A stretch of DNA of 64,000 bases from Phyllosticta citribraziliensis (GCF_038025025.1 NW_027117342.1:372001-436000), one strand, 5' to 3'. Shown: positions 30,683 through 55,812, counted from the first letter of the stretch. Notes: generated from the letters alone by a model not told the origin. Numbers and translations: made by a program.

Positions 30683-32137
30683 ATGAAAAGCATCGAACCC
30701 TCGCCAGAAGATACTGTCAATGCCCCTCAGCCACTCGGCAGGCCCTTGCGACCAAGCCCTGTCACCCTCGAAACTGCACAGAAGCCTCACGACCATCCTC
30801 TCGACTGGGTCGAAGAAATGACACCATCGTGGTACCCAGAACACTCGGCCACTCCACCTGAAGTATGTCTTTGGGCCTCCTCACCCGCCCACATTTGGGA
30901 ACGGCACTGGATCAAAGCAGCCAGCACCGACGAGGATGCCGAGGACGACTCAGTACGTGTCGCGAGCATCCTCAGGCGAGCAGAAGAGACTCTGTACGAA
31001 GTATCCGCAAATGTCGGCCTCAAGTTCCCAGAGTTTGGTCGCGGCTATCCGCTGCGACTCAGGAGCAATGGGCCCCACGAGATGTTTCCGAGAGGTTCCA
31101 AGGGATTGAAAAGGCTGGGCGAGGGACAATCGCCAGTTGAGATCCCTGATGGCGCCCGTTACTGCGCATCTGGGTACTATTTCGCCCCTGCTCCTACGAA
31201 ATTGGATCAGATGATGACGGTCGCGGACGCAAGCATGGAGACTTGTTCGACACCCAGTAATCGCCGAAAGCCTAGCGGTTCCGGTCCGCAAAGGCCCGCG
31301 TTGAGCCAATCTACCGCGCAAATGTCAGAATCAGACACGGAAGCAGACATGGAAGAGATTCCTCTTACGAGTCCCTCTACCGTCTCCGGAAGCCCTCCTA
31401 CGTCAAATTCTCCGCCAAGCTCGCCCCCCTGCCTTCCCACCGACAGTCCCTCGCGAGACTACCATGGGCCGGTGGACCAGTATCCTGGTGCCCTATCCGA
31501 CGACTCGGATGGATCAGTCTACAGTGAAGACCTGGATTCTTTCCTCAAACTTGAAGCTTCAGACACTGCAGATTGCGATCAGTTCCATGAAGAAAGTCTA
31601 CATTACGATCACCTTGACGACTTTGAACCAGATGCAGTGACCTGCACTGCAGCCCCCGTGAGGCTTGAACCAGCAAACGAAAACCAGCGCAAAGATTTGG
31701 TAGACAGCATCTGCGATGGCTGCGACCACGGAAAGTTTGCACCAAACAAGTCGAGCGAGCTCCCTGACCTTCCCTCTGGCTATCGTTGGACTGCACATTC
31801 GTTTGCGCTGCGCCACTCAGGGCCTCGACTGATTGTGTACGCCCCACCTCCTGTCGACCACGAATCTGATGACGACATTTCTTGCATTGGAAGTGATGGG
31901 ACAAGCGAGTACTTTGGCTCGCCTGTCAAGCTGATGCAGAATAATCGGCCTTCGTTATGGTTCGCCCCGATACCTGAGCAAGACGAGACCGACTACAATG
32001 AGCCTGTCAAAACACTGTATGAGGGATTCATGACCGAATATGGCTCGATGCTTGGACGACGCGCCGTTGAGCCACACAAATGTCATTCTGTGACGTTTTT
32101 CCTTACCGACATTTTGCGATTTCTGGGCCTTACCTAG
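30683..32137 (+). CDS. array core-family member 1 (unrecognised TPPE-W/PxG domain, Ser/acidic tail)
   Basis: Long ORF with a good Kozak ATG at 30683 (alternative 30470). Motifs MTPSWYPEHSATPPEVCLWASS, FPEFGRG, FPRGSKGLKR, GYYFAPAPTKL. Confidence 0.75.
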   Translation: MKSIEPSPEDTVNAPQPLGRPLRPSPVTLETAQKPHDHPLDWVEEMTPSWYPEHSATPPEVCLWASSPAHIWERHWIKAASTDEDAEDDSVRVASILRRAEETLYEVSANVGLKFPEFGRGYPLRLRSNGPHEMFPRGSKGLKRLGEGQSPVEIPDGARYCASGYYFAPAPTKLDQMMTVADASMETCSTPSNRRKPSGSGPQRPALSQSTAQMSESDTEADMEEIPLTSPSTVSGSPPTSNSPPSSPPCLPTDSPSRDYHGPVDQYPGALSDDSDGSVYSEDLDSFLKLEASDTADCDQFHEESLHYDHLDDFEPDAVTCTAAPVRLEPANENQRKDLVDSICDGCDHGKFAPNKSSELPDLPSGYRWTAHSFALRHSGPRLIVYAPPPVDHESDDDISCIGSDGTSEYFGSPVKLMQNNRPSLWFAPIPEQDETDYNEPVKTLYEGFMTEYGSMLGRRAVEPHKCHSVTFFLTDILRFLGLT

Positions 32138-32701
32138 TTGCTTGTTGGGCCCACGAAATCTGGCCGGTATTATAACGGGATTACGAGAACAGGTTCAGAA
32201 TACGGATAGAGGCTCACATGGAAAGGCGCCCCTTGGAACACAACCACGAGGGACGATGGTTTTCACGTGGTTGAAACCACTGTTGGTGGAATTTTCAAGT
32301 GTGTTGTGGTAGCGAGCGAACCAACATTTTGCAACCCACAGACCCAAGCGGCAACCGTCACGCACAAGTCATCAAGGCGTAATGCTGTCTGACCGACATT
32401 GAATCGAGAGTGGTTGAGACGCGCCCGACAGCATACACTTTGGACTTAGTGCAAGTTCGAGCTACGCCGTTCCACAAGGCTTGTCTCCGAACCTCTACCT
32501 CATTGTGCTCCACAACACTGAGAACTTGGGCTATACCATCGGCCAATGCCTGCTCTGCGCCATTCAAGGTCGATTTGTCGCCTGCGCTGGCCCTTTGGTG
32601 CATTCCCCCACATCCTCTTTTCAACCTATCGCCAAGTCAAGACTGGCCTGCAACTTTTGATCCCATCCTCAACGACCTACGAACCTCCTCCAGAGCACGA
32701 C

Positions 32702-33637
32702 ATGGACACTTCTTGCGCACAAGAAATCGCCCACTGCGAAGGGCCGAGCAAGGATGACGATGAGCACCAGCAGCAAGACCAAATTGTCGACAATATGGAG
32801 CTTGACAATGTGGAACCTGTCAAAGAAATGGAGCCGATGGAAGGTATCGAGGGTCAACATGAAGACGATCGTGAACGAATTACCAACGACTTGGCACGAT
32901 TCGCGAAACTGATGCGGCCCCGCTCATACTATGAAGTCCTACCGGGTGCCCTGGGCGAAAATCATCCAGGCATCTGCGTCGAAGAGAGCAAATCATGCAA
33001 ACCAAGAGAAACCAGCACCTCTCCCGAATGCTGCCTCTGGCTGCAGTCAGACGAAGTTCTCAGGGAGATACACAGCATGATATCTCAAGTCTGCTATCGC
33101 GAAGCGACCAGACACGACATGCCGCGGATCGTTTCCTGCCTGCAGCGCGTCCACAACCGCGTCTACAGGGTGCGAACAGACTTGGGCCTCGCATACCCGC
33201 CCGGCGCGACCGGTGCGTTGGCCGTCACAAGAAATGAGAGGCAAAGCGCTCCGCCGACCTCTGGCCAGCGCGAGTCTCCGCCGCCCTCGAAGCTGCGCGA
33301 GGTCTGGAATGCCGACGACTTCGAAGCGGAGGCAGACGACGAAGAGATCACCAAAAGGCTCGAGGCTGCTGCCCTTCACGTTTTTCTCAATGAACCGGAT
33401 CAAGACAGCGCTACCAGCGAGGCGAACGACGGCGCCGACACTATGGAAGGCATCGAGACTATGGACGGCGCCGACACTATGGAAGGCGTCGAGACTACGC
33501 GAGACGACCACGACATGCATTCGGGAGAGGCCGCACACGTCAGGGCGCTCTTGGGCGAAACGGGCACTGATGACGAGGACGACGTCGGAGACGACGGCGA
33601 TCCCCTGCAGCACACGAATCGAATCGCGCCCGCATGA
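32702..33637 (+). CDS. array core-family member 2 (acidic N- and C-termini)
   Basis: NHPGICVEESKSCKPRETSTSPECCLWLQS...SCLQRV...YPPGATG...PPSKLREV. Contains a 36-nt duplication at 33428-33499. Confidence 0.75.
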   Translation: MDTSCAQEIAHCEGPSKDDDEHQQQDQIVDNMELDNVEPVKEMEPMEGIEGQHEDDRERITNDLARFAKLMRPRSYYEVLPGALGENHPGICVEESKSCKPRETSTSPECCLWLQSDEVLREIHSMISQVCYREATRHDMPRIVSCLQRVHNRVYRVRTDLGLAYPPGATGALAVTRNERQSAPPTSGQRESPPPSKLREVWNADDFEAEADDEEITKRLEAAALHVFLNEPDQDSATSEANDGADTMEGIETMDGADTMEGVETTRDDHDMHSGEAAHVRALLGETGTDDEDDVGDDGDPLQHTNRIAPA

Positions 33638-34397: not shown

Positions 34398-34407
34398 TAT
34401 ATATAAG
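34398..34407 (+). promoter_or_regulatory. TATA box
   Basis: TATATATAAG about 100 bp upstream of ATG 34501, followed by a C/T-rich leader. Confidence 0.55.
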
Positions 34408-35539: not shown

Positions 35540-35977
35540 ATGTCCCAGGAACCAAAGCAGCGCCAGGCACAGACATGGTACCCGCCCCACCACCCCGGCT
35601 GGGCGGACCGCCTGAGCCCCTCGCTGCGTCCCTACAAGCACGCCACACCCCCCGAAGTCAACGCGTGGGCGACGAGCGAGCACATCCACGCGCGGCTCAT
35701 CACCGAAAAAGGCATGGCGCCGCTGCACCGCGCCATCCGCATCCACGAGGCGCAGAAGCGGCTGGACTACGACCTCGACTTCACCTATTTTCAGTACCCG
35801 CGTGGCGCGAAGGGCTGGAAGGCTGGGCTGTCGAAGAAGAAGTCGAGCCGTGGCAAGCTGCGTCGGCCTTCGCCTTTGTCGCAGTGTGAGACGGTGCAGG
35901 ACGGCGATGCGGAGACGGGCCAGCTCGTCGTCGCGTTTGGGCGCATGGCGCTTGAGCGACCGATGAGAGTTGTGTGA
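35540..35977 (+). CDS. array core-family member 3 (minimal, almost domain-only, 145 aa)
   Basis: HHPGWADRLSPSLRPYKHATPPEVNAWATS...FQYPRGAKG...RRPSPLSQCE. Confidence 0.8.
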   Translation: MSQEPKQRQAQTWYPPHHPGWADRLSPSLRPYKHATPPEVNAWATSEHIHARLITEKGMAPLHRAIRIHEAQKRLDYDLDFTYFQYPRGAKGWKAGLSKKKSSRGKLRRPSPLSQCETVQDGDAETGQLVVAFGRMALERPMRVV

Positions 35978-37166
35978 GAGTGGAGAACGTCGTAGACTGA
36001 CTTGCGAGTAGGCGAGATCTGTGGCCTGGAGCATGTGAAAGTGGAGCCTCGCCTTGGGCAGGCATCCACAGCGCTCTCGAGGAGTAAGTCGACGAGTGTT
36101 GCTGAGATGGATCGGCGACGCCAGGTAGAGATGAATCCAGACTGATTTCCTAGACCTTGCCCTGCTGATGAATGGAATGGCTGCTCTGGAAAGGTGAGGT
36201 ATTCTTTGAGCTTTGTGATGAGAGTCTTTGGCTGACGACCGCATTCTTAGGTTTAGAAAGGCTCACGTCCGCGCCACAGCCCATGACCGCCTCCATTTCG
36301 GACAGAGTAATGTTACTCTGACTCCACAGGCCTTTTCAAGTTGTCTTTGCTCAAAGTCAATATCTGAAAGCGTATCGAGTCAAGTTTTGGCGCCAGGAGT
36401 GAGTATCGCCGTTACCCCTGAAAATTAAAAGGTCCATTGTTTTCCGTCTCATTACTTCCAAATGCTTTATGAAGATGCCTGAAGTTGATCACATCGCAGG
36501 AAAAGCGATGTTGGCCGTGGATCTTGCGAAGGTCTTCGTTGAAAATGCGTGTCGATCGGGTTCGATAATGGTGCTTCAAGTGCGGTGAAGCGAACCCTGG
36601 GGCGGGGAAAGGGTAAAATATGCTCAAAATAAGCCATCGTGTTCATGGGAATAGTTTTGGAGGGGATATGCCAGACCGGGGACCGCGAACAGCCAGTGTT
36701 GCGAGGCGGAAAGCGTTGCTACAACCGCGTTTTGGACGACAGCTCAGGTCTTTGGTTGGACTCACCAACGAGCGCTGTATATTTTGAGGCTAGCAATGGG
36801 TTTCCTTTGGCGCTCTTTGGTCGAGATGCTGTAGCTGCCAGCCGACATGTGAAAGGACGGCTGCGTCGAGGTGAATGGGATTCACAATCGCGCTGGACCG
36901 CCGCAAATTACACATTCACCTGGCTGCTGCGCATCCGTGGCCACCTTCTGACGCGTCTGGCTTCTTTTCAAGTCAGCACTCTCTTCTCGCCGTACCTTGA
37001 GCCACTCCAAACCTTCGCTCTCCTTCTACTCCACCCCGACTACGACAACGCAAAGCGCCCAGACTTGTTCTGCTCCTACGATCCCATCCCTCCCTATACT
37101 CTACTTCTCTTCCCGTAGGAGATTCATCTTCTCGTATATCGCTCAAACACCTTCTCTTCGTCAACC

Positions 37167-38127
37167 ATGGAATTCCCTACCGCATCCATCGACGTTGCGC
37201 AGGTCAAGCTCTCGTGCCCCCCGGCTTGGAAGACCGCGTGTGAGGCCTCCGTCCAGATCATGGGAAATGGTCTCCTCGAACAGCCTTTCCACCGGGCTCA
37301 CCGTCTCGCCTGGGAGAAAGACTTCGACGACCAATGCGGCCACAACAACCCAAGCCGCAAGCGCAAGTACGACGGAGCTTTCAGGATAGACAACGCCTCA
37401 CAACGCAGCGGTCAAGCACAACTCGGGAGCATCTCAGTGAGCAGGGTCGGCAGCGGGGGCGGAGATGCGGGCTCTTTCGCCCACGGCAGTGGTCTGGCTA
37501 CGGTGAGCACGAAGCGGAAAAGGATCTCACAGCCTAGCTAATGACGAGCAGAGCTCTGTCACTGTGCCTGTATATACCGAGCAGATTTCCGAGCACAACC
37601 CTTATCCCGGCAACAGCTCTGACTTTGTTACTCTCGAGTACGACCCCAACGAGGAGCACAGTTCAGACTCCGAGTCCGACTCCGAAGAGGAGTACGACTC
37701 AGACGAAGAGTTGTACGACGAAGACTTCGAGTACGAGCCTGCCAACTCCCATCCTCCATGGACGCGTACGATGAGTCCCTCCCTCAATCCGTCCCAACAC
37801 TCGACACCGCCGGAGGTCTTGAAGTGGGTATACTGGCCGCCCATATACGACTCTCTGGATCACATTCGCCACAACATCGGCGCCAGATATCCTATGATAA
37901 AGATCGTATGCGTCAAGGCAGCCATGGCCCAAATCAGCTTCGTCGACCTCAGCACCTACAGGTTCCCATATGGGGCTATGGGAAGGCTGAGACCTCTGAC
38001 GCGTCCCCGGGCTCTGCCGTATCGCCATGTACTCCCTGGAAGAGCCAGAGGCCGCACGCCGAGCCCCTTGCAACAGGTGCAGGTGTGCAAATATCCGGAC
38101 GGGAGTCGAGACAAGCACGAGGGCTGA
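37167..38127 (+). CDS. array core-family member 4 (N-terminal WExDFD module, acidic tract, core domain)
   Basis: Intron 37503-37551 (GTGAGC..GCTAAT..CAG) joins the two ORFs in frame. AWEKDFDDQCG; HPPWTRTMSPSLNPSQHSTPPEVLKWV...YRFPYGAMG...TPSPLQQV. Confidence 0.8.
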
Positions 38128-38825
38128 GGACGGGATGGGGTCGGGGGTTTGCAACATCAAGACGAGCGGAGGGCTACATACTTTCAGCTTTTTCGTGTGC
38201 TCGTCATTCCAAGCTTCTCACTTGGCGGTCTTTAATGCAATTTTGGGAGCTCTTTCTGCGGTTTGCGCCTAAAATGGAAGCTTGTGTGAAGTCTTTTGTT
38301 GGTGTCGTATACTGATATTGTGCACCTTGTCTTTTTCATCGTCTAATTTGGCTCACAAAATACTTCTGCTTCTTCGATTGGCACTCTATCAAAATAAAAG
38401 TGCTCTCGACGGGAGTGATTGTTCAGTGTCGAGAGGGCTTGAGCAGGGCTGCGTCGAGCTGGTTGCCGAAGCGCACCGTATAATTCAAGGCAGAGTGAGA
38501 TTCTGGCGGTATTCTATTTCTTAGGCTCGGTGGATTATGAGGAGCCTGTGGTCGAAAAGCGTTGGCATCGAGTGAGTTGACGCAGAATTAACACTCGCCG
38601 TCGCCCACCACGCTCCGGACTGTTTACTGCCACCACGCGCACCCGAAATTCCAACCGCAGCACACTCCGAACTCTTTCCTGCTGCAACCTCTTCTCTCCA
38701 CTCAGGACCTACAGCCTCTGCCTTTTTCAGTGCACATCGACGACCCTGTCCTTCGTTTCGGAAACTTCGCCTTTCACGCTCTTCCGCAACTACAAAAACC
38801 TCACCCACCTCTGAAACATTCAAAA

Positions 38826-39719
38826 ATGTCTGCCGACCGAGAGCTCCGCGCCGACACGCCGTTCCGCGCCGCCACGTCGTTCCCCGAAGACCACCAGATA
38901 CGTCAAACTGATGCAGAAAGCCACGAGGCCATTGGCCGTTCTGGCAATGAGAGCAACGCCTCCGGAGAAGCTGGAGCAAGGCCAAGCCATGGTCCAGAGA
39001 CGAGCATCGTAACTTCAAGCCCCTCCAAGCAGTCCAGCACCGTTTCTGACACCTGATACCAGGCCGAAGAGGACGACGATGAGTGGGACCCGGCAATGCT
39101 CGAGCAAATGCTCCAACAAATGGTCGAGGAAGACGGAGACGACACCGAGACCGAAACCGACGACCGTCCCGGATGGGCCCTCATCCTGAGTCCTCCGCTC
39201 AGCACCTCAAAGCATTCCACCCCTCCCGAGGTCATGAGATGGGTCAGGTGGCCGGATGTAAACGATTCGCTCAGGTTTATATTCAACCGCCCTTGCCACT
39301 TCATTCGACAGGTTGCTTGCCTCAAGCGCGCTCTCTGGCTGGTTGACTACAATGTTGACCTTGACGCCTACCAGTTCCCGTATGGAGCAGAGGGAGAGAT
39401 GAGGGTGGAGAGGCCGCTTCCGCGCAGATATCGCGTGAGGAGGCAGAAGACTGGGCCGACGAGCCTGAGGCAAGTGGAGAGCTTGGTCTACAGCGCTTCG
39501 GACCTTCACAACATCTCGCTCAACGTCAAGATGCAACTTTGGGAGCTGGAGACCGATGGAGAGCCCCAGGAACACTTTGAATCTGAGAGTCCTGCAAGCA
39601 AAAGCGACGATGCAGGTCCTGCAGTGCCTAAACGAGCGGCGGAAGCCATTTCGACGAGCGAGGAGAGTTCCAGCGGTGTCGAGGAGTCCCAACAACGAAA
39701 GAGGGCTCGACACTCATGA
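38826..39719 (+). CDS. array core-family member 5
   Basis: A 54-nt stop-containing intron at 39009-39062 (GTAACT..CTGAC..CAG). RPGWALILSPPLSTSKHSTPPEVMRWV...ACLKRA...YQFPYGAEG...PTSLRQVE; ends QRKRARHS (NLS-like). Confidence 0.8.
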
Positions 39720-40469
39720 TCCGAGGGAAATCTCCACACTTAAGCTCGGCATCTCTCCAGTTGTTCGCTACGTTCCGAGACAACATGCCGCCGTTGAACC
39801 CATTTCGGGTGGCTGGCTTCCCTGAAACCGCCCCGGGCTTTTCGGCCGTCCTCCAACCAGAGTCCCAGGGCAACGCAAGAAAGTATTTGAGAGTTCAAGG
39901 ATGCTTGGCTTTCGTCTGTTGGTGAAGTGGCTTTTGAGCATTACCGCCTGGGCTTGCACTCACTGCTTTCGGGCAGAGCGAGGAGCAGGGACAAAACCTC
40001 TTTGGCTGAGGACGTTCCTGAAAGCCGTTCCAAGGTATGCTGAGCTGCGTCTTTAAAAATGGTGATCCTAACTAATGACTCGTAGCACCAGCTTCAACTT
40101 TCGCTGTAAAGCCACAAAAATGGGGCACCACGACACAACTTCAGACAAAGGAACTATTCCATGCGAAACGGAAGCTGTTTAATGGCGACAGTAACACTTC
40201 AAGAACCAGAGGCTTGTTCGGCATGTTCTGGGTTGGAATACGAGGCCTTCGTGTTTCGGGAAAAATGGAATGCTGGACTTTGTCTGTTCTTTGGGGACTT
40301 GTGCTTAAAATGCAACGCTCAGCACATAAATTCTTTTGGTATACGGCACAGGCGATAGCTACTACTTTGTTTCAAGGCTTCTTCGAAGTCCAATCATTCT
40401 TGGATGCTGCTCGATGGTATTGATCTCTTTGATCGCAACCGCTTGAGTGACATTCTGAGCCTTTTGACC

Positions 40470-40800
40470 CACGAGTAGCCAGTTTGGGCTCGAAGAGTAT
40501 CGTCTCGATCGCCAGGCAGAAGTACGAAAAGACTCTACGCGTACTTTCATCACGACCGGTCCTGCAAAACGACACGAAGAGCCCTCAGATATCGAAGAGA
40601 TCGGAGACGCGCAAACCTCGAGGAAAACCCTTGACGTCCAGTCCACGCAGCCGGCTTCCGAAGGCTTGAAGGCTACCAACTCAATCGATGCCACGGACCC
40701 TCTTGCTACAGAGCAGCCAGAAGGTTCCTTTTTCAGCCAAAAGTCCGATGGGGAGTTCGACGAAGAGCCTGAGCAGTTGACCGTCCAGCCACATGTGTAG
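40470..40800 (+). pseudogene. possible degenerate exon or relic of an acidic array gene
   Basis: About 110 open codons with no ATG (EEPSDIEEIGD...DGEFDEEPEQL), preceded by a possible GTATTG..CAG intron. No core motif seen. Confidence 0.25.
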
Positions 40801-42345
40801 AAGGTCGAAATCCAGTCCAGGAGCATCAGACTCTCTTTATCCTTTCGGCAAAGCCGACTTTGCAACCGCGCAATCGCTCAGTTCCATTGTCGAAGTAAAT
40901 TGAGCATTTCACGAAGTATCGCGATGGTCGATTCGCTCGGCACCCACGGTGGCCGTACATTGTTTTCAACATCAATTGCCGCAACCAGATTCGGTCAAAA
41001 AGCATAAACTACAGCAACCGCGAGAATCTTGACACAGAGACGCTTCGAGAAGGGCTGAAAGAGAACTCCCATAGAGTCTTACTGGGGCCAGAGGAGCAGT
41101 GAGCTTGCATCAGTCACTCGCGCACTCGGATGTCCCACGTTTTTCATAAGGTCCAACAGCCTACATGGGAAGGGGAAGGATGGATGTAATGTGTAAGGTT
41201 TCATGTTGATGTTTTCTTTAGATGGTCCTTTCTGGGTTTTACTTGTAAACTACTGCATAGAGCTTGGGATAATCTTCAATGGAGAGTTCAGAACCGGTTG
41301 ATGACTGCGGAGTGGCACTCTGAGAGTTGATACCAGACCGTCTTCTCAGTTCAGAGACTAAGGAGAATGACCAGTGGACATGCGGTATTATCAGCTGGCG
41401 GATCGAGACGCAAATATGAACCGAGTACTTTCACTGACGCCACAAAACTTCGTTGGTACTTACTGATCATATCTAGAATATGGGAAGCGACCAAAGCCGG
41501 CTTTACGGCCCCCGAGTCTAGCAGACACCTAAACAGTCCTTCGAACTTCATTCAATTGATTACGGGCGCAGCAATCAGTGTCAACTATGTTCACTTTTCA
41601 TTCTTTTATCCTTGATTTGCCCTTCCTCTCCGTAATGACAATCAAAGATTCTGCCAATTATTGGGCCTGGTGGTTGCTTCTCCTCCCTTATTTCAGCATT
41701 TTATATTACTTTGTGCGTAGATTTGCAACAATGCCCATAAAATTCCTTCCAGGAATGCTCTGTAGGGGTGTAGAACAAGACTGCACACCAATATCTAAGC
41801 TTAAGGAGCGAAATAGAGCATTTGGTGGTGACGTGCGTCAAAGACAGATTTCTGCGCCCCTGAAGCGCTGTATATCGAAATCAGTTTGTCAGAGTTGTGG
41901 CGTAACTGATGGGCACAGCCACGAGATGTCGAGCTGATTGAGCAGAAGACTGTGGCTCAGTGCTCAAAGCTCAAAGTGAATATCTGGGAAAGCAAGATGC
42001 ACAGCGTCGGCTGTGATTGGTCAATGGGATGAAGTGAATCAAAGTGAATTCACACCGAAGTATTGTTGTGCAAGGCCGCTCGCCATCTTCTTGCACCTCT
42101 AACTCCCAAATTCATAACAAACCCTCAAGCCATCCATCTCTCAGCTTGCTGGCTCCACACTCTTTCCTGTCTTTGAAGTTCTGAGCAACTCTATCTCTGC
42201 CCTACCTCTCTTGCAACCCATTCGACCTCGCTCTGTCTTCTTGTCTCAGCTCTCTTACCAACAACCGGCTTTTCTCCAATCGACTCCGACACAGCAACTT
42301 CGTCTTCTTTCCCTCTCGAAGTTCCGTCAATTCCCTGTATCCACC

Positions 42346-45642: not shown

Positions 45643-46224
45643 ATGGCCTTCATGAAGAACGCAAAGACTGCCGCCCTCGATCAGTGGACTTCGATTGACT
45701 GGGACGACGAGCTCAGAGATCTTTGCATCAAATCCAACCAAAGGAATTTCGAGCTCGCCGCATTTCTCGACACTGAGGAGTCTCAGCAAGACGACTCTTG
45801 GATCTTTATGAACAAGCCTGGCAATTCAACAGGCCACCAGTATACTTCGCACAACGACATAGATCGGGTTGATGCTCAAGATCTACGAAAGCTGGAGGGA
45901 ATCCCGCCTAACGCCACACCTGATGCTGCGTACCAAAGCATCATATTTACCAGCTCTCACAAATACGAGCGAAGCTGTGGCAAGAGCTTGGAAAGCACCG
46001 TATCTAGCGTCACCCTCTATACCGCCTTTTGTAACACGCTTGACTCCGTACGTCAAGCCTACAACGATGCCGTGACGACAGAGGTTCCGCTGGGTAGTGA
46101 GGAGGAGGCAAAGGAGCTGGAAGAGAGCAGCAAGACGCCAGCCAGAATAATCGACATGGTGAACTCTGTTGGCATGTTCTTATGGGACTGCTGGAACGAG
46201 CGGCCACTGATCCTCAATGCCTAG
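45643..46224 (+). CDS. array DW-module family member C
   Basis: IDWDDELRDLC, SSVTLYT and C-terminal GMFLWDCWNERPLIL. Confidence 0.75.
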   Translation: MAFMKNAKTAALDQWTSIDWDDELRDLCIKSNQRNFELAAFLDTEESQQDDSWIFMNKPGNSTGHQYTSHNDIDRVDAQDLRKLEGIPPNATPDAAYQSIIFTSSHKYERSCGKSLESTVSSVTLYTAFCNTLDSVRQAYNDAVTTEVPLGSEEEAKELEESSKTPARIIDMVNSVGMFLWDCWNERPLILNA

Positions 46225-46736
46225 GCATCACGTTGCGGAGTGAGCGGTGGATCATCTGTTTCCTTGGGCGGCATTTTGTCAGAATAGCTTTTACACACAT
46301 TCTTACTTTGGAGTGTCAAATTCCGTTTCTGGTTGATCGCGAGCATCGGGGCGTTGAGGCATCATCGCGTGAAGCATTACTTAGCAAGATTATCAAATGC
46401 AAAATGCGGGCTGCGTACCTTGGTTCATTTTTGACACTCCCATGGTAGATTAACACTTCTGGCACCCGACCGAGTTTTGAAAGTTGGCGCGAGCTTCTGT
46501 TGCTGCATGGCAACCAAAGCTGTTCGGCGCGCCGACGCGTGAAGCAACTGCGGCGCAAAAGCACCAACTACGCACGCGTCTTCAAAACTAAAACCTCAAC
46601 CTCAACCTCCACATATCGAAAATTCCAGTTTCGACTACGCACATCTCTACTTTCGGTTTCCATTCAACCTTACACTCAACCAACTTCGACTCAAATCTTC
46701 CCGTTTCCTCCAACTCCCACCGTTACCAACGACGCA

Positions 46737-48752
46737 ATGTCTCAGTCTACTCAGAACATGTTCGACGTGTCTGCCAGCAAGCCCGGCCTCAGCTGGGCTG
46801 ATGAAATGAATGAGTTGGCTGACGCTGACGAGTCTGGCCCTCTCCCGACGGTAAGCTTGAGCGATCTCTTCAAAAAACTTGCCTCGTGCTAACTACGAAG
46901 CTAGCTGCCCGAATGGACACCACTCCCGGCATTGAACCTGGCTGAAGAGCATGGAAACCCATCGGCTCAACCCGAAACCCTTGATGCTCCGTCCACCGAC
47001 CTCTTCGATACCAACACCTTCTACACTGAAGACTCTGCACCCGAGTCGGGAGAGGAAACAACCAGCGAGCCTGGAACCGCGGGAGTCGACGGACATTATG
47101 CTGATGGAAAGGCCTGCGGCCAAGTAGACAGTGATGAAGAGCCGCTAGCAGAGACTGAGCAGCCAGACTATTCCAGCAACGAAAATTCTTCTTCCGAAGG
47201 ATACGAATCCGGCGCATCTCAGCAGTCAACTTCCTCAGCGTCTACCGAAGACAACAACCCTATTTTGGAAGATGAAGACTCCTCAGAGAACTACTACACG
47301 GAGTCGCAGTCGGAGAACGAGCGGCAAGACACCTTCAGCACGATTTCGACCTCCAATGAGTCTGATCCCGATTCCGGCTCCTCTGAGCGCGAGGTGGATG
47401 CTTCTTCAGCGTCTGGGGACGACGAAGACCCTTCCTTCGCACCTTATCACCCAGGATGGACGAAACACCTCAGCCCCTCAATCAGTCCTCACCATTCAAC
47501 GCCCCCGGAAGTAAACAGGTGGGCGTTCTCGCCTCCCATCGGATATGCGCTTCAACGCGATTTGGACTCCTTGTATCTGGACGAAGACTGTCCAAACCTT
47601 GCAAAGCCAGCAACTTTGTCTCGTGCGCTGCTGCACACTGACAGCGATGGATTGAGTGGGTATGCATTCCCGTACGGCGCTCGGGGATTGAAGAGGCCAC
47701 TTCCGAAGCTTTTCGACCGCAGAAGGCCAGAGATTCGTCAACAATCTCAACTCTCGCATACCGAGGTGGTAGATTACAGCCAAGAAGACCTGCACATCAT
47801 CAATACGAAGGCTGCTTCACATTTCAAAAAGCATTACATTGAGGCGGCCCCAGAAATCATCGACGCAGATTCCCAGGTTTCTTACCAGTCGTCTTCCGCG
47901 CCGTCTTCCGCGCCGTCTTCCGCGCCGTCTTCCGCGTCCGACCAAGACATTTCGGAGTTTCCTTCAGGCCAGTCCGAGGATGGAGACGATCTATGGTCCC
48001 CCTTGACAGAAGAGGAGAGCCAAGGCGGTAACAGCAGTGTCGAAAGTGACGATTGCGTTTTTCAACGCGTCCTACTCAAGGAATCAGTTTGCAACCGGGG
48101 CTGCGCGAGCGAACCAGACCTTGAGGTCTACGATATCTTCAATCTCGACAACGAAGAGCGTAGTCACGCCCACTTGACCAAGGCCGCGGCACGCCGTCAA
48201 GATCCAGTAGCGTATCTCGACCTCGCGACAACTTGTTCAGCTGGAAATCAGAACTTCCTTGAGGAGCAGAACGGCTACGATTCAAGTGTCTCGGATACCA
48301 TCGACAGTCTCGAAGCTGAAGATACAGACAGTATTACGGCAGCGGTACAAGAAACCGGTATTATTGTCGAGCTCCCGCAATATTTGGCTTCAGAGTCCCA
48401 ATCCTTTGACAGTCTGTCCAATATCGATAGTATCTCTGTGAGGGGCACTAGCGACGATGGAAGTAATGGGGAGCCTGCAGAATCTAGCCAACTCGATAAC
48501 ATCTTGGACCTTGCGATCGCCACCGCCCTTCCAGGAGCCGACTTTGTCGAGGACTTCAATGATGAAGACCACCAGCGCACCCACTTGATTGCACCAGTTC
48601 AAGACCTTGGGAACGATCTCGAGAAGGACCTCCAGCATGTGGAGGACAAGGTTGGACTAGGCGCTGGGTTCTTCGGAGGAATTATGGCAGCGGGCAGGTT
48701 CCTTTGGAATTGCCTCAACGACAGGCCCCTTGTGCTCGACAACCCCTGGTAG
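46737..48752 (+). CDS. array core-family member 6 (longest; acidic/Ser-rich, with the C-terminal FLWxCxNxRP module)
   Basis: Intron 46851-46904 (GTAAGC..GCTAAC..TAG) is in frame. YHPGWTKHLSPSISPHHSTPPEVNRWAFS...YAFPYGARGLKRPLP...RQQSQL; ends GRFLWNCLNDRPLVLDNPW. (SSAP)n 12-nt repeat at 47891-47936. Confidence 0.85.
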
Positions 48753-49178
48753 GGAGGCACATGGGAAGCTTGTATACTAAGTTCGATTGTCTGTCTTGAG
48801 CCGAATTTGTCAGTCAATGGCCTCATTACTAAACCATTATTCTTTACTTCTGTGAGGCGGCCTGAAGCTTTTTTCGCTGGGAGCAGTACTCTTGAATTGT
48901 CCCTCCACAATGTCTGGAGCTTTGATGCCAAAAAATTCAGCAGCGTGGGCCTTGAAGGGAAATATCAGAGCGTGAATAGTCGGAAATCCGAGCGGTCCTT
49001 TCCATGTCACTCTGGCTGCCCAGCGGCGTATCTGCAATCTCTCTTCCAACAACGCAACCTCAGCAGATGACCAACACCGCCCAGCCTCCTTCTCTGTACC
49101 TTTATTTTCACCACTGCACTACCTGTAGTCCTTCATAACCAACCGTTCCTGGGTATATATTTCCCTACTCGTGGCAAA

Positions 49179-50087
49179 ATGGCTAACACTCAAGCCTACC
49201 ACGAGCAGTTTGGCTGGGCCAACGAGCTGGAGAAGGACGAAGAAGCAGGTTGCGCTTCACCGGTAAGTCATCTGCTTTTCTGAGGGCCACAGCGGGTGCT
49301 GAACACGAGACTCAGATGCAAATATGGAGCTGGGAGTCTCCAGACTGGAGCATCGGACCAGACGAGTACCACCGGGAGCCTAAGGTTGAGAAGTCGTCTG
49401 GAGCCGAAGTACCCATGTTGTCCAAGCCAATCGAGGACGACGAACGCGACTTCTTCGTCTCAAAATGAGGTCCACAGCGGTGCTTCGAAGCAGAAACAAG
49501 CCGACAAAGTCTCTGTAGATCTTGAAAGTATGCCTTCGACTTCAGCAAGCGGCAACACCGACAGCTCTTCGACACAGGAAACTCCAGTCTTCCAATTCAA
49601 CTCCAAGCCGTTGCCGCGGGACCATCCAGGTGGGACGACAGAAATCAGCCCGCCATTTAATCCCTTACACTCCACGTCGCCAGAAGTCAGCAAGTGGGTG
49701 CATTCAGACGGCGTTCGAAGACATCAACAACAGCCAAAACCAAAGCCTCAGCAGACCTTTTGAAACATCGCTACGAGGCCTTGAAGAAGGGCTACGGCGG
49801 CAACCTGGGCTGCAATGACTCGCTAACCCACACGCTGGACGTCGTGACGCGCATCTACGGCCTCGAGAAGCAGCTCCACGAATGGAAAGCCTCACTCCCC
49901 CCGGGCCTGTCCCGCGAGGCTGCGCGCCGCACTTGCTCAAACCGACGACTTGAATACCCCGGGATATGCGTATCTGCACGGCCCGTGGGGAGTCAAGAGA
50001 CCGCTCGCAAACACCTTTCTTCACGGGCGCCCGGAAACTCGGCAGCAGTCTCGAGTGTGGCATTGCGAGCTTGTTGGCGATGATTAG
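49179..50087 (+). pseudogene. array core-family member 7, disrupted paralogue of member 6
   Basis: First exon and intron resemble member 6 (GWANELE..P|GTAAGT). Apparent frameshift near 49445-49468. DHPGGTTEISPPFNPLHSTSPEVSKW is followed by in-frame stops (49761, 49845), then RLRAALAQTD..GYAYLHGPWGVKRPL..RPETRQQSRV. Confidence 0.7.
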
Positions 50088-50493
50088 AAGTTACAGAGCA
50101 GACACGAAGATTACCAACAGTATTTCTCCCCGTTGTATGGCGACGATGGAGGCGACACAGCGGCTTGCAAAGGGATGGCGCCTCTCAAATATTGAAGGCT
50201 ACTTTTTTGGTGTTGCGGAAGGAAAGTCGATTCCGGGCAGTCTTTCATGTGTTTTTTGGTCGTCCATCTGGCCGTTTTATGTTGGATATTTCGAAAGCTC
50301 GGGCATTTTTACGTCTTTCTACACCTCATCAGCTTGCTACATATTTTGAGTGGAGAGAAGGAGAGATTCAGCTCATTAAATATCAAAATGAACCCGAAGC
50401 GCCTTACCTTAACGTCTGCAGCACATCAATATGCAAACGCATTCGTTGTCGCCCACCCATGTATTCGACAGTGTCTGCTGGAGCAGCATTGTC

Positions 50494-50506
50494 GTTGCTT
50501 GGCAAC
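50494..50506. promoter_or_regulatory. RFX/Crt1 X-box-like imperfect palindrome GTTGCTTGGCAAC
   Basis: Resembles the GTTGCY-N-GGCAAC X-box; about 160 bp upstream of ATG 50669. Function is untested. Confidence 0.35.
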
Positions 50507-50668
50507 CAAGTCCACCACCAAAGACCTCTCCGTCCGATTTTCGGCATCTCTTGATCTTGAGCACAACAAACACACTGCCAACCACATTTTGAGCACTTTC
50601 TTGCTCACACACCCTCACAACTTTCTTCCCGGAACATTCACCGCGAGTTCTGAGTCCAATTCGACACC

Positions 50669-51625
50669 ATGAGACTGTCAGCCAAAATTACCCAGTGGTG
50701 GCGCGCAAGTAGGTCCATCCAACAGCTATCCAGACGCTGAGGCTAACACGACCAAGCAAGCCGCACAGAAATCACCGAAGACGAATCCTCGTCTCAAAAC
50801 GGCGCGCACACTTCGAGCTCCACTTCTTTGCCCTGGAGTACAAGTAGGTCCAATCTCGAGACAGTCTTACACTGAGTACTCATCTGGAGTAGGAAGCTCT
50901 GTCCCAGAGATTATGGCTGGGCGTGGCTTGCGGCTCCAAAGCAATGGTCCACGTCCCGCGCTCTCGCGGGCAAACGTCTCCAGCGTGCCATGGATCGGGA
51001 CAACCGGCGTCGAGCGAGTGGCGATGTTTGTCGAGGGCGCCAACATATGGGAACCCAAGCCCATCCCAGATAATTACGGGCCTTTTTCCAACGCCGCAGG
51101 CTCCTACGGGTCGCAAAGCGCAACGGGAGACCCTCAAGGTATGAAGTCCCGAGTGACGAGGCCCGAACGCAGCTGACGACGCGTCTCTGGACAGCCCACG
51201 ACCACTCCGACGAAACCAGCACAGCGCTCGAGTACGACGTGCACAACCTGCGCCGGTGCGTACGCAAAGGGAGGACACACGGGGACCCGGCCGCGCTGCG
51301 GAAGCTATCCTGCATCAACCGCATGGACGTCTCGGACCGAGTCTCCTGCACCTACATGTCCAGCGCGGAGTCTCTCTCGTCGGCGGAAGCTCTCTCGAAT
51401 TCTGCAGGCAGAAGGACTCGCACACCAAAGCTGCCACCTGGACCCAAGGGATTGAAACTCCCGAGCGAAGCGCCGGTGGATTGGAAGCCGTACGTCCCGA
51501 ATGGCGTGAGCCGCGATCCCAGGAATCGGCCGCCGCGTGGTCGCTGGTACTACCCTGAGCAGTCGTCTTTGAGGCATGAGGTTGCTCTCATCGGCGGTGG
51601 TGGAGAAGTTGAGGGGGCCAGCTGA
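50669..51625 (+). CDS. array core-family member 8 (only the C-terminal half of the core is recognisable; ~4 exons)
   Basis: Probable introns near 50709-50760, 50844-50892 and 51139-51195. Last exon reads LRKLSCINR...PKLPPGPKGLKLP...YVPNGVSRDPRNRPPRGRWYYPEQSSLRHE. Confidence 0.65.
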
Positions 51626-52175
51626 AATGGAAAGATATTGTGAAAGAAGATGGGAGGGAGTTGGGGGTTGGGAGTATCACACCCGTCTGATGAAAGCCGT
51701 ACGAAAGACAGTGGATTCGCGCTGCCCAGTATTCAAAGGCCCCAATGGAATGTTGCCAACGCCTTTCAACTTTCGCTGCTGAAATCAAATTCGCACGTTC
51801 GCACATGCGTGTGGTGCTTCAGGTCCTGTGGTCAGTTGAGGCAGGTCTCCTGGTGTAGTTCGTGAATGTTCAATAGCGGGTAGCTGACATCCAGGTTGTC
51901 GTCCTTCTGTAATATTAGGCTCGCCGAGACCATGATGATCGCCTCGGCGGGACCGTCGATGTTCGCTCACTTCAGACTTCCTCCTCTTTCCCTGCCTCCG
52001 CGAGACCCGGGCCAGCCTCGTCGTCCAACGCGCTCTCCACTCGAACTCACGACAGAAAGATCTCGTTGCAGCGGCACACAGCAACGCTCCTAACGTAAGT
52101 GATCGCCCTCCCTGCCGGCCACTCCTGACGCTAACGGCTCTCGGCCGCCCACAAGCAAAGAACCCGTCCAAGAAG

Positions 52176-52802
52176 ATGTCGAGCCCGGAAAGAGGTGAAG
52201 AAGAGGCTGCCAGGCCAACGATACCCGAGCTCCGTCTGCGTCCCCCAAGGTGGCGGCAACAAAAAGACGACGAGCAGACTGAAGGTCCGCAGACGCAAGC
52301 CACATTGGAAGAATCAGTAATGCTGACCTACGAAGAACAAGAGACACCTGCGCCCGAAGAGCAGCAGCGCCTCTCACCCTCGCTCGAGCCACGCAAGTGC
52401 GCCACAGCGCCCGAAATCTGCGCCTGGGCCAGTAAGCCCACCTTCATCCAAGAGCTGCTCGACCTGCACGGAATCATGAAGAGAGGCAACAAAGGCGCGC
52501 AAAAGGCCGAAAACGTGCGCAAGTTTGCCTGTATCAACAGAGCCTTCGCAGCCGGCTGGTACCAGACGCCCTTGGATGCCGAATACCAGCTGCCCCTTGG
52601 TGCGACGGGAGAGAAGAGGATGAGGCCCGAGCTGGAGCGCGGCAGTCAAGGCTTGAAGAGGCCCTGGGATAAGGATGTGCCGGCGGATAAGGACATCTAT
52701 GTTCCGAAGGGCGTGACCAGGGAGCTGCGGTATCGTCCGCTGGTGGGCAGGTGGTACTATCCGAGCCCGTCTCGGCTTAGTCAGGAGTTCAAGCCAGAGT
52801 GA
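52176..52802 (+). CDS. array core-family member 9 (subfamily B)
   Basis: RLSPSLEPRKCATAPEICAWAS...RKFACINRA...LPLGATG..RP.LERGSQGLKRPWDKDVP..YVPKGVTR..RP..GRWYYPSPSRL. Probable 5'UTR intron at ~52095 (GTAAGT..GCTAAC). Confidence 0.85.
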   Translation: MSSPERGEEEAARPTIPELRLRPPRWRQQKDDEQTEGPQTQATLEESVMLTYEEQETPAPEEQQRLSPSLEPRKCATAPEICAWASKPTFIQELLDLHGIMKRGNKGAQKAENVRKFACINRAFAAGWYQTPLDAEYQLPLGATGEKRMRPELERGSQGLKRPWDKDVPADKDIYVPKGVTRELRYRPLVGRWYYPSPSRLSQEFKPE

Positions 52803-53757
52803 AGAGTTGAGAGATTGACGAGGAGCATCGACGGCGTCTGGGTTCGAGACATCTGGGTGGAAAGTCTGGTGGCGTATTACTTTACAAAGATCAAGTACTC
52901 GCGCCATGGAGCAAGTCATCCAGCTTTGGAATGTATTCTTCTGTCGCAATAGCGTTCGTCCGAGTGGAAGCGGACAGCATCAGACGGTTTACATTCAAAC
53001 ATATACCTGATTGGGATAGCATCTTGACCTCTTTCTTGTTGGCTTCAGGCCATATTTTATGCTGCAATTTGATCTCGTTCCTTTCTTCAGATCCGTAAAG
53101 GCAGGCCCAAATGGGTCATCAATCCGCATATACACCGGGCGAGGTGGGTCTTGGATTATGGCAAAGTTCTCGTTGACAGCGAAATTTTCTCGGAGCGTGA
53201 AGTGTTAATTTGGACTTGTGGTGTTTGGACGGCCACCTGAGCATCGGTCGAGGAGCAGGCGCCGGAAAGCACCAAAAGTCGTCTGCCATGTCAACAAACA
53301 CCACGCACTCGACCTCGACATCCTCCAACATCCGCATACACTCCAACTCTTCTGCAACCACCACCACTGCGAATTGTGAGGTTATACGGCTGTAACCATC
53401 CCTGAAATCTTGCTCACAAACCTTCGACTTTCCAACAAGACAGCTGACGGCTTCATCAACTCGCTCTCCAAGGTACGTTCAACCTTGCAGCCATTTTGAC
53501 CTTCGGCCGACTCGACTCAGCAAAGTCCCACGGGCGAGTCGGCTCTTGACCTCGAGGAAAATCTCAATCTTGCCTCCTCTGTGCCGCGCTATCCGACCCT
53601 ACGCGTCTCACGGCATGTCGAGACGCGCAGCTGTTTTGATCTCAAGCTGACTTGGCTCAGCATTTCCTCTGCAGGCCGATCGACACCTCAGCGCGAGAAC
53701 AGTCTCGTCCCACCCAGTCGCGGAAATCCTTCTCTTTGCGATTCTCTTCTCAACATC

Positions 53758-54518
53758 ATGTCACCCCCCGAGCAGTTCGCCAACGCCGAGACCAGCAAGA
53801 CGAGCGAAGAGAAAGCTCCTGAGATGGAGCACACCGATAGCGCTGAGAAAGACATGGAAGAACTCAGGACCATGTTGGCCAAGTACGGCGTCGAGCTGCC
53901 GGAGGACGACGATGACGCGACAGTCATGGACGACCAGGACTTCGAGAAGCTGGACCAGTTCTACGAGGACTGCTTCGACATGTCCGCGGGTATTGAAGGC
54001 CCTTGCGAGGAAGAGCCTGACGACATTGAAGGTTCGTAACCGTCTCCTCCGCCTACCGTGCCAGCACTGACTTGTTTCAAGACTTCAAGAAGCCGGGCCT
54101 CTCCCCATCTCTCAAGCCAGAGAAGTGCGCGACCGCACCCGAGATCTGTTACTGGGCCAGCAGCACCCAGCTGAAGCAGGAGTATCGACAACTTCGCGCA
54201 ACCCTCGTATACGACAACGATCTCTCAGACGACGCCGTCCGCAGGTTCGCCACGATCAACACCGCATACAAGCGCAGCTGGTACCCGATCCCGGCGGGAG
54301 AATGCCTTATGTACCCAGACGGCGCCACGGGCAAGAAGAGGCCGCTGCCCAAGCTCCCGCGTGGTTGCAAGGGTCTGAAGGAGCCCTGGGACGACGACAT
54401 CCCGACCAACGACTACGTTCCCATGGGCGTCAGTCGCAAGCGCGAGAACAGGCCGGCGCGCGGACGGTGGTTCTTCCCGCAGCAGTCTGGTCTCCGCTAC
54501 GAAGTCAAGTCGGAGTAG
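53758..54518 (+). CDS. array core-family member 10 (subfamily B)
   Basis: Acidic exon 1 and a phase-1 intron from 54032 (GTTCGT..CTGAC..AAG). GLSPSLKPEKCATAPEICYWAS...YPDGATGKKRPLPKLPRGCKGLK...YVPMGVSRKRENRPARGRWFFPQQSGLRYE. Confidence 0.85.
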
Positions 54519-55111
54519 ACCAGAGGGCAGCTTCAGAGAGCGGGTGACAGTGGGGGAGGTCGGACCCAAAATGATGTCGGAAGGAGACCAAAGTTGGCTT
54601 GCTGTGACATACGGAAGGATGAGTTGGGCAGAAGAGATGTTGAGAGAATGTCAGAGTTGACAGACAGCAACCTTGGAAAGAGTCAATACCTCATGTATAA
54701 TAGTGGACCAGGCTGGATAGATGGTGTTGGATACCCAGGGCTGAATTGGTAGTCAGTAATGAAAGATCTCTCAACGAATTCGTCCTCAAATCCAGGCCAT
54801 GTTGCTGCAGTGCTGCCCATGTTGCGCAAGATGGGCTCGGCAAAGATTCCGTGCCTGATGAGGCAATTGAAGTCGACGGAGTTTCGAAAGGGGCTCGGCG
54901 TGAGGGCACAAAACCGCCATGAAGGTCCACCAACTCTAACACTCATCAGCTCGAAAGCCATTACGACTGCAACCACCACGTTCTCGGCGTGACCAACCCG
55001 TTCCCAACTTCACCACACAGATCATCCGTAAGCTCTTGAACTTTCTGCAGCTGCCACAACCACCTTCTCAGCTTCTCACTGATTGACCTTTCAAAGATCA
55101 TTTCCTCAAGC

Positions 55112-55812
55112 ATGTCTTCCTCAAGCATGTCGAACAGGGAGGCTCAGAAGACCGACGCCGAGGCCAAGCTGGCCAAGTCGAAACACACCCTGGGGTTGCT
55201 GAAGGATTTCAGCAGGGCCATCTTGCAGCAGATCGAGAGCGTCGAGGCTGAAATCAAGAAGGCCGAAGAGGACGTTGCGCGCGCTACCAAGCGAGAGGAG
55301 CGGGCCGAAGGCCAGGAAGAAGGTTCGTGACAATAAAAGGTCAAGCGATTTGGGTACTAATGAGCCAGACAGACGAAGAGGAAGAATTTCGCCTGTCCCC
55401 CTCCCTCGTCCCCGACCAATGCGCCACGGCTCCCGAGATTGCCCTCTGGGCACGCAGCGACGACCTTCTCGATGAATTCCAGGACATGCGGCGGCTCATA
55501 CGCGCCGGCGTGTACAACGAGGACGTGCTCCGCAGGATGGCCATCATGAAGAGGGGCTACGCGCAGACCTACGTGCTGCGGTCTTACGAAAAGTACGACT
55601 TTCCGCCGGGCGCACTGGGCACGAAGCTGCGTCCCGCCAAGTGCCCTCGCGGCTGCATCGGACTGCGGACCAACAAGGACAAGGATGTTCCGAAGGACGA
55701 GGACGTGTACACTCCGATGGGTGTGAGCCGCAAGCTCGAGAATCGCCCGCAGAATGGCCGCTGGTATTACCCACGGCCGTCTTCTCTTCGCAATGAGTAC
55801 AAAGCAGAGTAG
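55112..55812 (+). CDS. array core-family member 11 (subfamily B, coiled-coil-like N-terminus)
   Basis: Phase-1 intron from 55323 (GTTCGT..CTAAT..CAG). RLSPSLVPDQCATAPEIALWAR...YDFPPGALG..RPAKCPRGCIGL...YTPMGVSRKLENRPQNGRWYYPRPSSLRNE. Confidence 0.85.

Follow-up and report, generated by a model that had tools for sequence, protein, structure and literature searches.

BNIP3/NIX and Atg32 are tail-anchored receptors for organelle autophagy; like the W-acidic cargo adaptors of kinesin-1, they bear a short linear motif near the N-terminus, on a disordered cytosolic arm. Among filamentous ascomycetes, lineage-specific gene clusters have been described in Neurospora crassa; according to that account, 78% of the clusters adjoin telomeres, in rearranged regions rich in non-coding sequence, and Neurospora is without recent duplications (Wang et al. 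2023, PMC11628664). Here we describe a tandem gene array in a stretch of 64,000 nucleotides from Phyllosticta citribraziliensis (GCF_038025025.1, NW_027117342.1:372001-436000), called the window below, with positions counted from its first letter. The genes, on the plus strand from 30470 to 55812, belong to a genuine, undescribed, order-restricted family in a conserved tandem array. Like the N. crassa clusters, as that source presents them, they are clustered, fast-evolving, of narrow range and without an assigned function in a filamentous ascomycete. Unlike those clusters, they form a single family of true paralogues between genes for PI31, a folliculin-interacting protein (FNIP), a short-chain dehydrogenase (SDR) and a Git3 receptor, on a contig listed as 2.47 Mb, and the array is conserved in place across an order. 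With BNIP3/NIX, Atg32 and the W-acidic adaptors, the family shares an architecture only, namely an acidic aromatic N-terminal motif, a disordered acidic arm and a C-terminal hydrophobic helix. Homology to them is absent in both sequence and fold, the conserved core of the family has no known counterpart there, and those proteins are not known to form a 14-gene array. The new findings are coreless relatives in a gap of the array, N-terminal helix and C-terminal tail modules, a disrupted copy at 49179 and four antisense introns.

A reading of the sequence alone (hereafter the sequence-only reading) had proposed eleven co-oriented paralogues with a shared core. A core profile hidden Markov model (HMM) was built from seven cores (35570-35974, 37732-38124, 39147-39506, 47415-47804, 52329-52799, 54075-54515 and 55372-55809) and searched against 1500 six-frame, stop-to-stop segments of at least 25 residues, covering both strands of the whole window. 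The four claimed copies outside the training set were all recovered (E values 7e-15 to 1e-7). They matched at 32522-33634 (7e-15), at 30359-32134 (5e-12), at 49284-49760 for the N half (6e-8) with 49848-50084 for the C half (4e-4), and at 51074-51622 for the C half only (profile positions 59-124, 1.3e-7). The core HMM had zero matches outside the array and zero on the minus strand among these segments. When the 35540 protein was used as the sole phmmer query, eight other array segments were found at E ≤ 0.008. Since the four remaining copies were found and none appeared elsewhere, the array observation is confirmed, far beyond chance, as 11 core-bearing copies across 25 kb, all on the plus strand. 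The members detect each other at significant E values, which was the check that had been suggested. A regular-expression scan of the plus-frame translations placed the shared, ordered motifs where they had been reported. The C-half match and the translation agreed that the 50669 copy keeps the C-terminal motifs only. No transposon signal was seen within the array, as had been stated, and no long DNA repeat was seen there.

Some points had to be corrected. Six database proteins matched the window letter for letter (those of the 30470, 32546, 35540, 37167, 38826 and 52176 genes). The first two genes start upstream of their earlier coordinates, because the database proteins map from 30470 and 32546; the other starts were kept. 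Two of the core copies, 49179 and 50669, are degenerate or disrupted.

The ancestral protein is modular, consisting of an N-terminal helix, an acidic arm, the core, a variable arm and a C-terminal hydrophobic helix. Its first module is a short tryptophan-acidic helix, (F/W)GxΦxWDxE(Y/F/L)xEL, which recurs in full-length homologues (for example, SFASGLESFGSIDWDAEYEELV, WGAIDWDDELEELC and PGLSWADEMNELA). The second module, following this helix, is a long, acidic, disordered arm. The core, of about 120 residues, begins with an extended HPGW/LSPSLxP lead-in and continues with a helical hairpin that starts from an S/T-x-P-E cap and carries an invariant Trp; YPxGAxG and a basic, proline-rich stretch follow. 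In the nine clean cores, Thr, Pro, Glu, Trp, Pro, Gly and Leu are invariant, identity to the first core is 23-34%, and paralogue cores within the window are 23-47% identical. Beyond the core, a second variable arm leads to a hydrophobic helix that closes the protein, as in the full-length homologues ending with AAAVAIVGGLVAFLG, VGHTVWSICSVNPLSVFLF and AVGAFLWDCWNERPLVLDD; one Botryosphaeriaceae long form ends with VAIVGGLVAFLG. Aspartate and glutamate together make up 15-22% of most members.

Hydrophobicity was calculated as Kyte-Doolittle means of 19-mers, and N-termini were judged by eye. In 10 of the 65 database representatives described below, the most hydrophobic 19-mer (mean at least 1.4) falls no more than 25 residues from the C-end; in 6 of these the mean is 1.6 or higher. 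Tails of relatives reach 1.4-2.1, which is tail-anchor grade in some of them. In the window proteins the highest mean is 1.52, in a core helix. The claim that there are no transmembrane (TM) segments is therefore correct for the window proteins but not for the relatives. No N-terminal hydrophobic leader was seen in the window proteins, in agreement with the reported absence of signal peptides. A tail-anchored protein should have one TM-grade segment within about 30 residues of the C-terminus, no signal peptide and no other TM segment. In the window proteins the N-termini are polar and no internal 19-mer exceeds 1.52.

The consensus of the LC3-interacting region/Atg8-interacting motif is [W/F/Y]-x-x-[L/I/V] after acidic residues. 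In 19 aligned homologues, the Botryosphaeriaceae N-terminal motifs read E-[Y/F]-[E/D]-[E/A]-L, as in DWDAEYEEL. DWDAEYEEL has Y-x-x-L after acidic residues, together with I/L-D-W-D, and in this it recalls the receptors and adaptors named above. At the same site, Phyllosticta forms and the window sequences 45643, 46737 and 42346 have L-E-E-L, M-N-E-L or Y-D-E-Q. Unlike those receptors and adaptors, 45643 and 46737 have Leu or Met where the aromatic residue would stand.

An N-module HMM was made from 19 N-termini from outside the window, and a C-tail HMM was made from 11 tails. The top five N-module matches in the window were all in the array and on the plus strand: 46449-46889 (E 5e-6), 45610-46221 (1.2e-4), 42118-42990 (0.023), 43840-44229 (0.032) and 37119-37538 (0.2). 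The C-tail HMM matched 46905-48749 (E 6e-13) and 45610-46221 (4e-8). The gene at 45643-46224 (plus strand, 193 residues) carries the N motif IDWDDELRDLC and the tail FLWDCWNERPLILNA and has no core. When P0039, P0040, P0044 and P0048 (database homologues are given by such numbers) were used in tblastn, they aligned to both ends of its open reading frame (ORF), with the middle unmatched. Because the N-module HMM, the C-tail HMM and tblastn at both ends all point to it, 45643-46224 was taken as a family member without a core. Two further coreless relatives are tentative. The ORF at 42346-42993 (plus strand, 215 residues, 28% aspartate and glutamate, motif WELEFDEQCG) gave tblastn E values of 0.017-0.03 to the N-termini of P0004/P0005 and zero Pfam matches. 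The other, at ~43981-44983 (plus strand, an approximate model), has the N motif DPWKDWEEDFRELC at ~44059-44103, followed by an ORF at 44243-44983, with tblastn E values of 0.009-0.2. With one firm and two tentative coreless relatives, the array appears to contain about 14 genes. The 11 core copies of the sequence-only reading stand, and the array is longer than it had supposed, with the coreless relatives filling the gap at 40-46.7 kb. As the three modules, the taxonomic range and the gene order are now defined, a Pfam-type model can be built.

The family had been called unrecognised, and the searches for a known family or fold were in accord with this. Nine window members, 35 full-length homologues and 6 more sequences gave no match at the Pfam-A gathering threshold, P0063 excepted, and no HET, NACHT, kinase, nuclease or NB-ARC domain, the marks of fungal drive or incompatibility genes such as Spok, HET-domain and NLR genes, was present among these 50 sequences. 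In P0063, bacterial-type SprB and Ig-like domains reach the threshold, and it was rejected as a family member and treated as a spurious profile match. A PDB sequence profile search gave zero matches at E ≤ 1, and Foldseek against PDB gave zero at E ≤ 0.001 (best E at least 3.5). VIA-align against 48161 chains gave none above Z 5.0; its top rows were generic helical hairpins, which are noise for helical models. The top structural neighbours, over model residues ~13-85, were the histidine-kinase DHp domain, the N domains of Sgt2 and SIP, and MED7/MED21. Their scores were at noise level (VIA Z ≤ 5.0, Foldseek E ≥ 3.5, identity 5-15%), and only a helical arrangement is shared. The 52176 protein is present letter for letter in the ESM Atlas, with no usable neighbour there.

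The 157-residue core of 52176 was modeled using AlphaFold2 with a 32-sequence alignment (mean predicted local distance difference test score, pLDDT, 75; predicted template-modelling score, pTM, 0.49). Helices were predicted at 28-34, 37-51 and 57-74, in a block of pLDDT 86-95, with a conserved extended lead-in before them and an extended C-terminal part after them at moderate confidence. The invariant Thr-x-Pro-Glu opens the first helix of the model and, in our reading, resembles an N-cap. Full-length P0039 was predicted with a mean pLDDT of 62 and a pTM of 0.36, with helices at the N motif (17-26) and the tail (316-333) and disordered arms between them. A homodimer prediction of the 157-residue core (score 0.00) is uninformative, as the alignment was unused in it and the partner's own fold was uncertain. 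No paper was found that names the accession numbers or locus tags of six members, and literature searches on family expansion, lineage-specific tandem genes and antisense transcription in Phyllosticta and Botryosphaeriales yielded nothing on the family. The terms tandem, orphan and expanded families are absent from the available text of PMC9073689 and PMC12559956, the supplementary tables of which were outside the scope.

A profile of the nine window cores was scored against 1.84 billion representative proteins. At E ≤ 1e-3 there were 65 matches, of which 47 reached E ≤ 1e-10 and 7 reached E ≤ 1e-30; six of the 65 representatives are the window's own proteins, and one (P0063) looks spurious. 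Of 30 clusters looked up, 22 carried an organism name, and all of these are from Botryosphaeriales or Coniosporium. The genera are Phyllosticta (P. citrichinensis, P. capitalensis, P. citriasiana and P. citricarpa), Neofusicoccum, Botryosphaeria, Diplodia, Lasiodiplodia, Aplosporella and Coniosporium, the last being a Dothideomycete of uncertain placement with distant members. Every organism-named member is annotated as 'hypothetical protein'. Botryosphaeriales include major pathogens of trees, vines and citrus as well as common endophytes, and the family is limited to this order and a small number of relatives.

Members elsewhere are usually adjacent genes. Neofusicoccum ribis has three with consecutive locus tags (SLS56_011365, _011366 and _011367), and Botryosphaeria dothidea has adjacent pairs (GTA08_BOTSDO09389/09390 and 09439/09440; also SLS57_006821/006822). 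Diplodia intermedia has SLS58_000297 and _000300, and Coniosporium has the adjacent pair H2199_003555/003556. In one P. capitalensis strain, seven members fall within 18 consecutive GenBank protein numbers on one 1.52-Mb contig. In Coniosporium apollinis, the member H2201_000365 and PI31 (H2201_000347) share a contig and are 18 locus tags apart; in the window, 9 kb separate PI31 and the array. As PI31 is near a family member in both, the locus is old. Already in this place before the fungal families parted, and retained there, the gene family reached about 14 genes in Phyllosticta; it has no name, Pfam model or known fold neighbour. The view of these genes as lineage-specific orphans was not upheld, as the family spans Botryosphaeriales and distant Coniosporium and is clustered there too.

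A maximum-likelihood tree was constructed from 60 cores; six duplicate window entries, P0063 and cores with fewer than 85 profile positions were left out. Clade A (19 rows, support 100/98) contains 35540, 37167, 38826 and 46737, and clade B (12 rows, support 99/95) contains 52176, 53758 and 55112; all organism-named rows of both are from Phyllosticta. Clade C (22 rows, support 87/56) has 30470 and 32546 mixed with Botryosphaeriaceae and Aplosporella. Each of the nine window cores pairs with one orthologue from another source. These 1:1 orthologues indicated that the duplications took place before the sequenced Phyllosticta species radiated, and that the array is old and stable. From the tree, only clades A and B are genus-level (or family-level) expansions, clade C being common to Botryosphaeriaceae. 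The proposed old, lineage-specific expansion thus held as to age (1:1 orthologues in other Phyllosticta species, 23-47% core identity) and, for two of the three clades, as to restriction to Phyllosticta, but not for clade C. Over its full length, the 46737 protein matches its P. citricarpa orthologues at 40-41% identity. For the neighbour PI31, identity is 89% with the P. citricarpa cluster, 71-73% with Botryosphaeriaceae and 60% with Coniosporium. Of the proposed diversifying pressure, fast divergence relative to PI31 is what these comparisons show.

At the DNA level, paralogue similarity is limited to 36-nt patches at 67-75% identity, and self-comparison of the array gave no inverted repeats and no recent duplicates. 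Repeat-induced point mutation (RIP) is recognized by TpA/ApT of at least 0.89, a positive composite index and AT enrichment. The RIP signature was absent over 28001-58000, where the composite index was -0.21 to -0.97 in 30 of 30 1-kb bins and the lowest GC was 0.46. The argument that RIP would penalise such duplications is moot, because there is no RIP signature and the paralogues are too diverged at the DNA level for RIP.

Transcript data were contigs of two runs (X1 and X2) from two studies, compared over 36500-56400. The run type is itself a guess, and the runs were treated as RNA because the contigs carry spliced joints; the contigs do not show strand abundance. All four splice joints read CT..AC on the plus strand, that is, as GT..AG introns of the minus strand (48071-48118, 48795-48889, 50319-50407 and 54936-54997), with CTRAY-like branch sites. 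The contigs with these introns span 47907-55913, antisense to members 6-11. The first intron falls inside the 46737 coding ORF on the opposite strand, and a 5.5-kb contig (50408-55913) is broken only by the last. As the joints were of the minus strand only, spliced antisense RNA covers the right half of the array. The antisense transcripts suggest that the plus-strand genes may be under condition-dependent control, and they raise the question of how the array is controlled. One X1 contig match starts at 37551, one base before exon 2 of 37167, and is preceded by 31 unmatched letters; this edge is compatible with a plus-strand splice of 37167 and is taken as a hint. Contig cover is absent over parts of 39156-41147 and 43804-44467, which is uninformative on expression. 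The minus strand is without a long ORF. The only sizeable one to the right, of 363 residues at 57005-58093, had zero database matches and was rejected as a recognised gene behind the antisense RNA.

Our best explanation of the whole is an old array of about 14 genes for an undescribed intracellular family, with an origin as a modular adaptor and module loss in Phyllosticta; we regard it as evenly balanced between right and wrong. In this explanation, the ancestral long form would be tethered to an organelle membrane by its C-terminal helix, would expose its two interaction modules on the cytosolic side and would thus work as a protein-protein adaptor or scaffold. Partners would be bound by the W-acidic helix and by the helical core together with the basic, proline-rich tail of that core. 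Phyllosticta would then have gained three kinds of products by tandem duplication and later module loss: anchored-type long forms (30470 and 46737); soluble core-only forms, some with a KRAR-type basic end (35540, 37167, 38826 and the 52176/53758/55112 clade); and a coreless form with the N motif and tail only (45643). The three kinds could partition or compete for common partners. This specific mechanism, in which a tethered long form binds partners and the Phyllosticta derivatives re-partition or compete for them, is read from the architecture, and we offer it tentatively, as rather less probable than its opposite.

Several observations weigh against this explanation. Modular adaptors, membrane-tethered or soluble, are a best guess from architecture. 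The window tails are weakly hydrophobic, with means of 0.86 (30470) and 1.27 (46737); they are below TM grade, unlike the anchors of the receptors compared above. The Phyllosticta tail also carries charged residues (FLWDCWNERPLVLD), so that the supposed anchor may instead be an amphipathic peptide motif. With pTM values as low as those of the two models, the packing of the modules cannot be read from them. The membership of 42346 and ~44000 is based on E values of 0.02-0.03, position and strand. The range could extend further, as eight of the 30 clusters are without an organism name. The 5.5-kb contig retains the predicted plus-strand introns of 53758 and 55112, and no plus-strand splice joint was present in the contigs of the two runs, which cannot exclude rare plus-strand transcripts; the sign of plus-strand expression is thus limited to the hint at 37551.

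The same features could be read differently. If the proteins were nuclear, they would be acidic chromatin or transcription co-factors: the N helix would be an activation or docking motif, the core with its basic tail would contact nucleic acid or a partner in the nucleus, the tailed forms being membrane-held precursors. The strongly acidic tracts and the basic, proline-rich stretch after the helices are consistent with this, as are the KRAR clusters, which may act as nuclear signals and which are kept between orthologues (RKRARHS at the C-end of 38826 and RKRARYS at that of P0020; AKRARL near the N-terminus of P0043 and P0054). However, these clusters are missing from several members, Pfam gave no DNA-binding or chromatin domain, and no helix-turn-helix-like fold was matched, the best VIA hits being the hairpins at Z 5.0; we judge a nuclear role unlikely. 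A broader idea is that the array is a self-contained interaction network on a new domain, in which an anchored adaptor gave rise to soluble, nuclear and coreless competitors and long, spliced antisense RNAs switch the entire set on or off. Competition would occur via the W-acidic helix, the core and the tail, and switching would follow developmental or host conditions. We consider such a network decidedly unlikely; if it were true, a fungal order with many plant pathogens and endophytes would possess a lineage-specific regulatory module of a new type.

The tandem layout, the two degenerate or disrupted copies and the fast divergence (40-41% versus 89% for the neighbour in the comparison with P. 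citricarpa) would also fit a selfish or recognition system, either meiotic drive with an antidote or non-self recognition, as the sequence-only reading had suggested, with paralogue diversity as the trace of an arms race. Every window core, however, has a 1:1 orthologue in another species, and the adjacency of locus tags persists between species and between genera, Coniosporium included, unlike the presence/absence turnover expected of drivers; with no HET, NACHT, kinase or nuclease domain and no recent duplicates, this is very improbable. Of the proposed roles, drive, non-self recognition and a meiotic function drew no support from the analysis. Host-targeted effectors delivered without a classical signal peptide would fit a plant-associated genus and order and a family that is clustered, fast-evolving and lineage-restricted. 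But the proteins have 145-700 residues and are acidic and disordered, not small or cysteine-rich, no N-terminal hydrophobic leader was visible, and the C-terminal tails would point to a cell-internal protein. Members also occur in Coniosporium, a genus known as rock-inhabiting and not as plant-associated, and we give an effector role hardly any credence. Lastly, the locus could mainly make spliced, minus-strand, non-coding RNA, with the plus-strand ORFs non-functional and the family a decaying relic; the four minus-strand joints out of four, the introns retained in the 5.5-kb contig and the two degenerate members fit this. Against it, plus-frame protein conservation extends across genera (E to 1e-22; Thr, Pro, Glu, Trp, Pro and Gly do not vary), ORFs of 500-700 residues are open in several genera, the minus strand offers only the unmatched 363-residue ORF, and contigs cannot show the absence of rare plus-strand transcripts. 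A relic is scarcely probable at all.

All members are on the plus strand. Member 1 (30470-32137, coding 30470-32134) is a single-exon gene for 555 residues and maps exactly to P0008; its core (30782-31228) belongs to clade C, the clade common with Botryosphaeriaceae. Member 2 (32546-33637, coding 32546-33634), also a single exon, encodes 363 residues, maps exactly to P0009 and has a clade C core at 32939-33346. In this gene an 18-nt in-frame repeat at 33415-33486 encodes GADTMEG(I/V)ETM units in an acidic tail. Member 3 (35540-35977, coding 35540-35974, 145 residues, clade A) consists of the core, a short tail and little else, and is 84% identical to its orthologue P0002 of P. citrichinensis. 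Member 4 (37167-38127, 303 residues, clade A) has two exons (37167-37502 and 37552-38124) around a canonical GT..AG intron (37503-37551), maps exactly to P0011 (core HMM E 3e-50) and carries the N-terminal W-acidic motif LAWEKDFDDQCG, which the N-module HMM matched weakly. Member 5 (38826-39719, 279 residues, clade A) likewise has two exons (38826-39008 and 39063-39716) and a canonical GT..AG intron (39009-39062), and maps exactly to P0012 (E 1e-45).

Member 6 (46737-48752; core HMM E 3e-42) is a long form with the N motif SWADEMNELA, an acidic tract, the core at 47415-47804, a variable region and the C-terminal tail. It has a short intron near 46890-46904, where there are two in-frame stops, and its orthologues P0021/P0023 align end to end. 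Member 7 (49179-50087) is disrupted, with four in-frame stops separating the core halves from 49760 to 49848. Inside it, 130 nt (49784-49913) occur in the RNA contigs of both runs as part of a different, deeper transcript whose flanks are unrelated, with 6 mismatches, a depth of 1528 in X1 and 21-111 in X2, and loose ends on both sides. In another frame, this piece reads ...LEKQLHEWKASLPPGL, and its position coincides with the break in the core. The piece was probably captured from another gene, and its capture is perhaps the cause of the disruption. Member 8 (50669-51625) is degenerate and keeps only the third helix and the clade B C-terminal extension (51074-51622).

Members 9-11 belong to clade B. 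Member 9 (52176-52802, coding 52176-52799) is a single-exon gene for 208 residues that maps exactly to P0007 (E 1e-48) and is of the CATAPEI type with the C-terminal extension. Member 10 (53758-54518, E 2e-45) combines a first exon near 53758-54039 with a core exon (54030-54515); both align with the orthologue P0013. Member 11 (55112-55812, E 3e-43) has a first exon at ~55112-55320 and a core exon ending at 55809; its orthologue P0010 aligns at 55139-55318 and 55357-55809.

The array had been placed between ordinary genes, and its flanks are indeed core genes: the PI31 proteasome regulator (20198-21190, plus strand), the folliculin-interacting protein (FNIP_N, 21736-25872, minus strand) and the short-chain dehydrogenase, found on the minus strand at 28576-29139, on the left, and a Git3-type G-protein-coupled receptor (61195-63225, minus strand) on the right. 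Within the array, 40001-42000 has the region's lowest GC (0.46-0.49), with no long ORF, no RIP signature and contig cover in one of three depth bins. To the right of the array, two ORFs overlap on opposite strands, 56768-57565 (plus, 265 residues), which is absent from the ESM Atlas, and 57005-58093 (minus), for which the database lacks even an identical entry. Directly 3' of the last array gene, at 55827-56030, is a 17-nt minisatellite, CGTCATCACGGGAACGC, of about 10 units.

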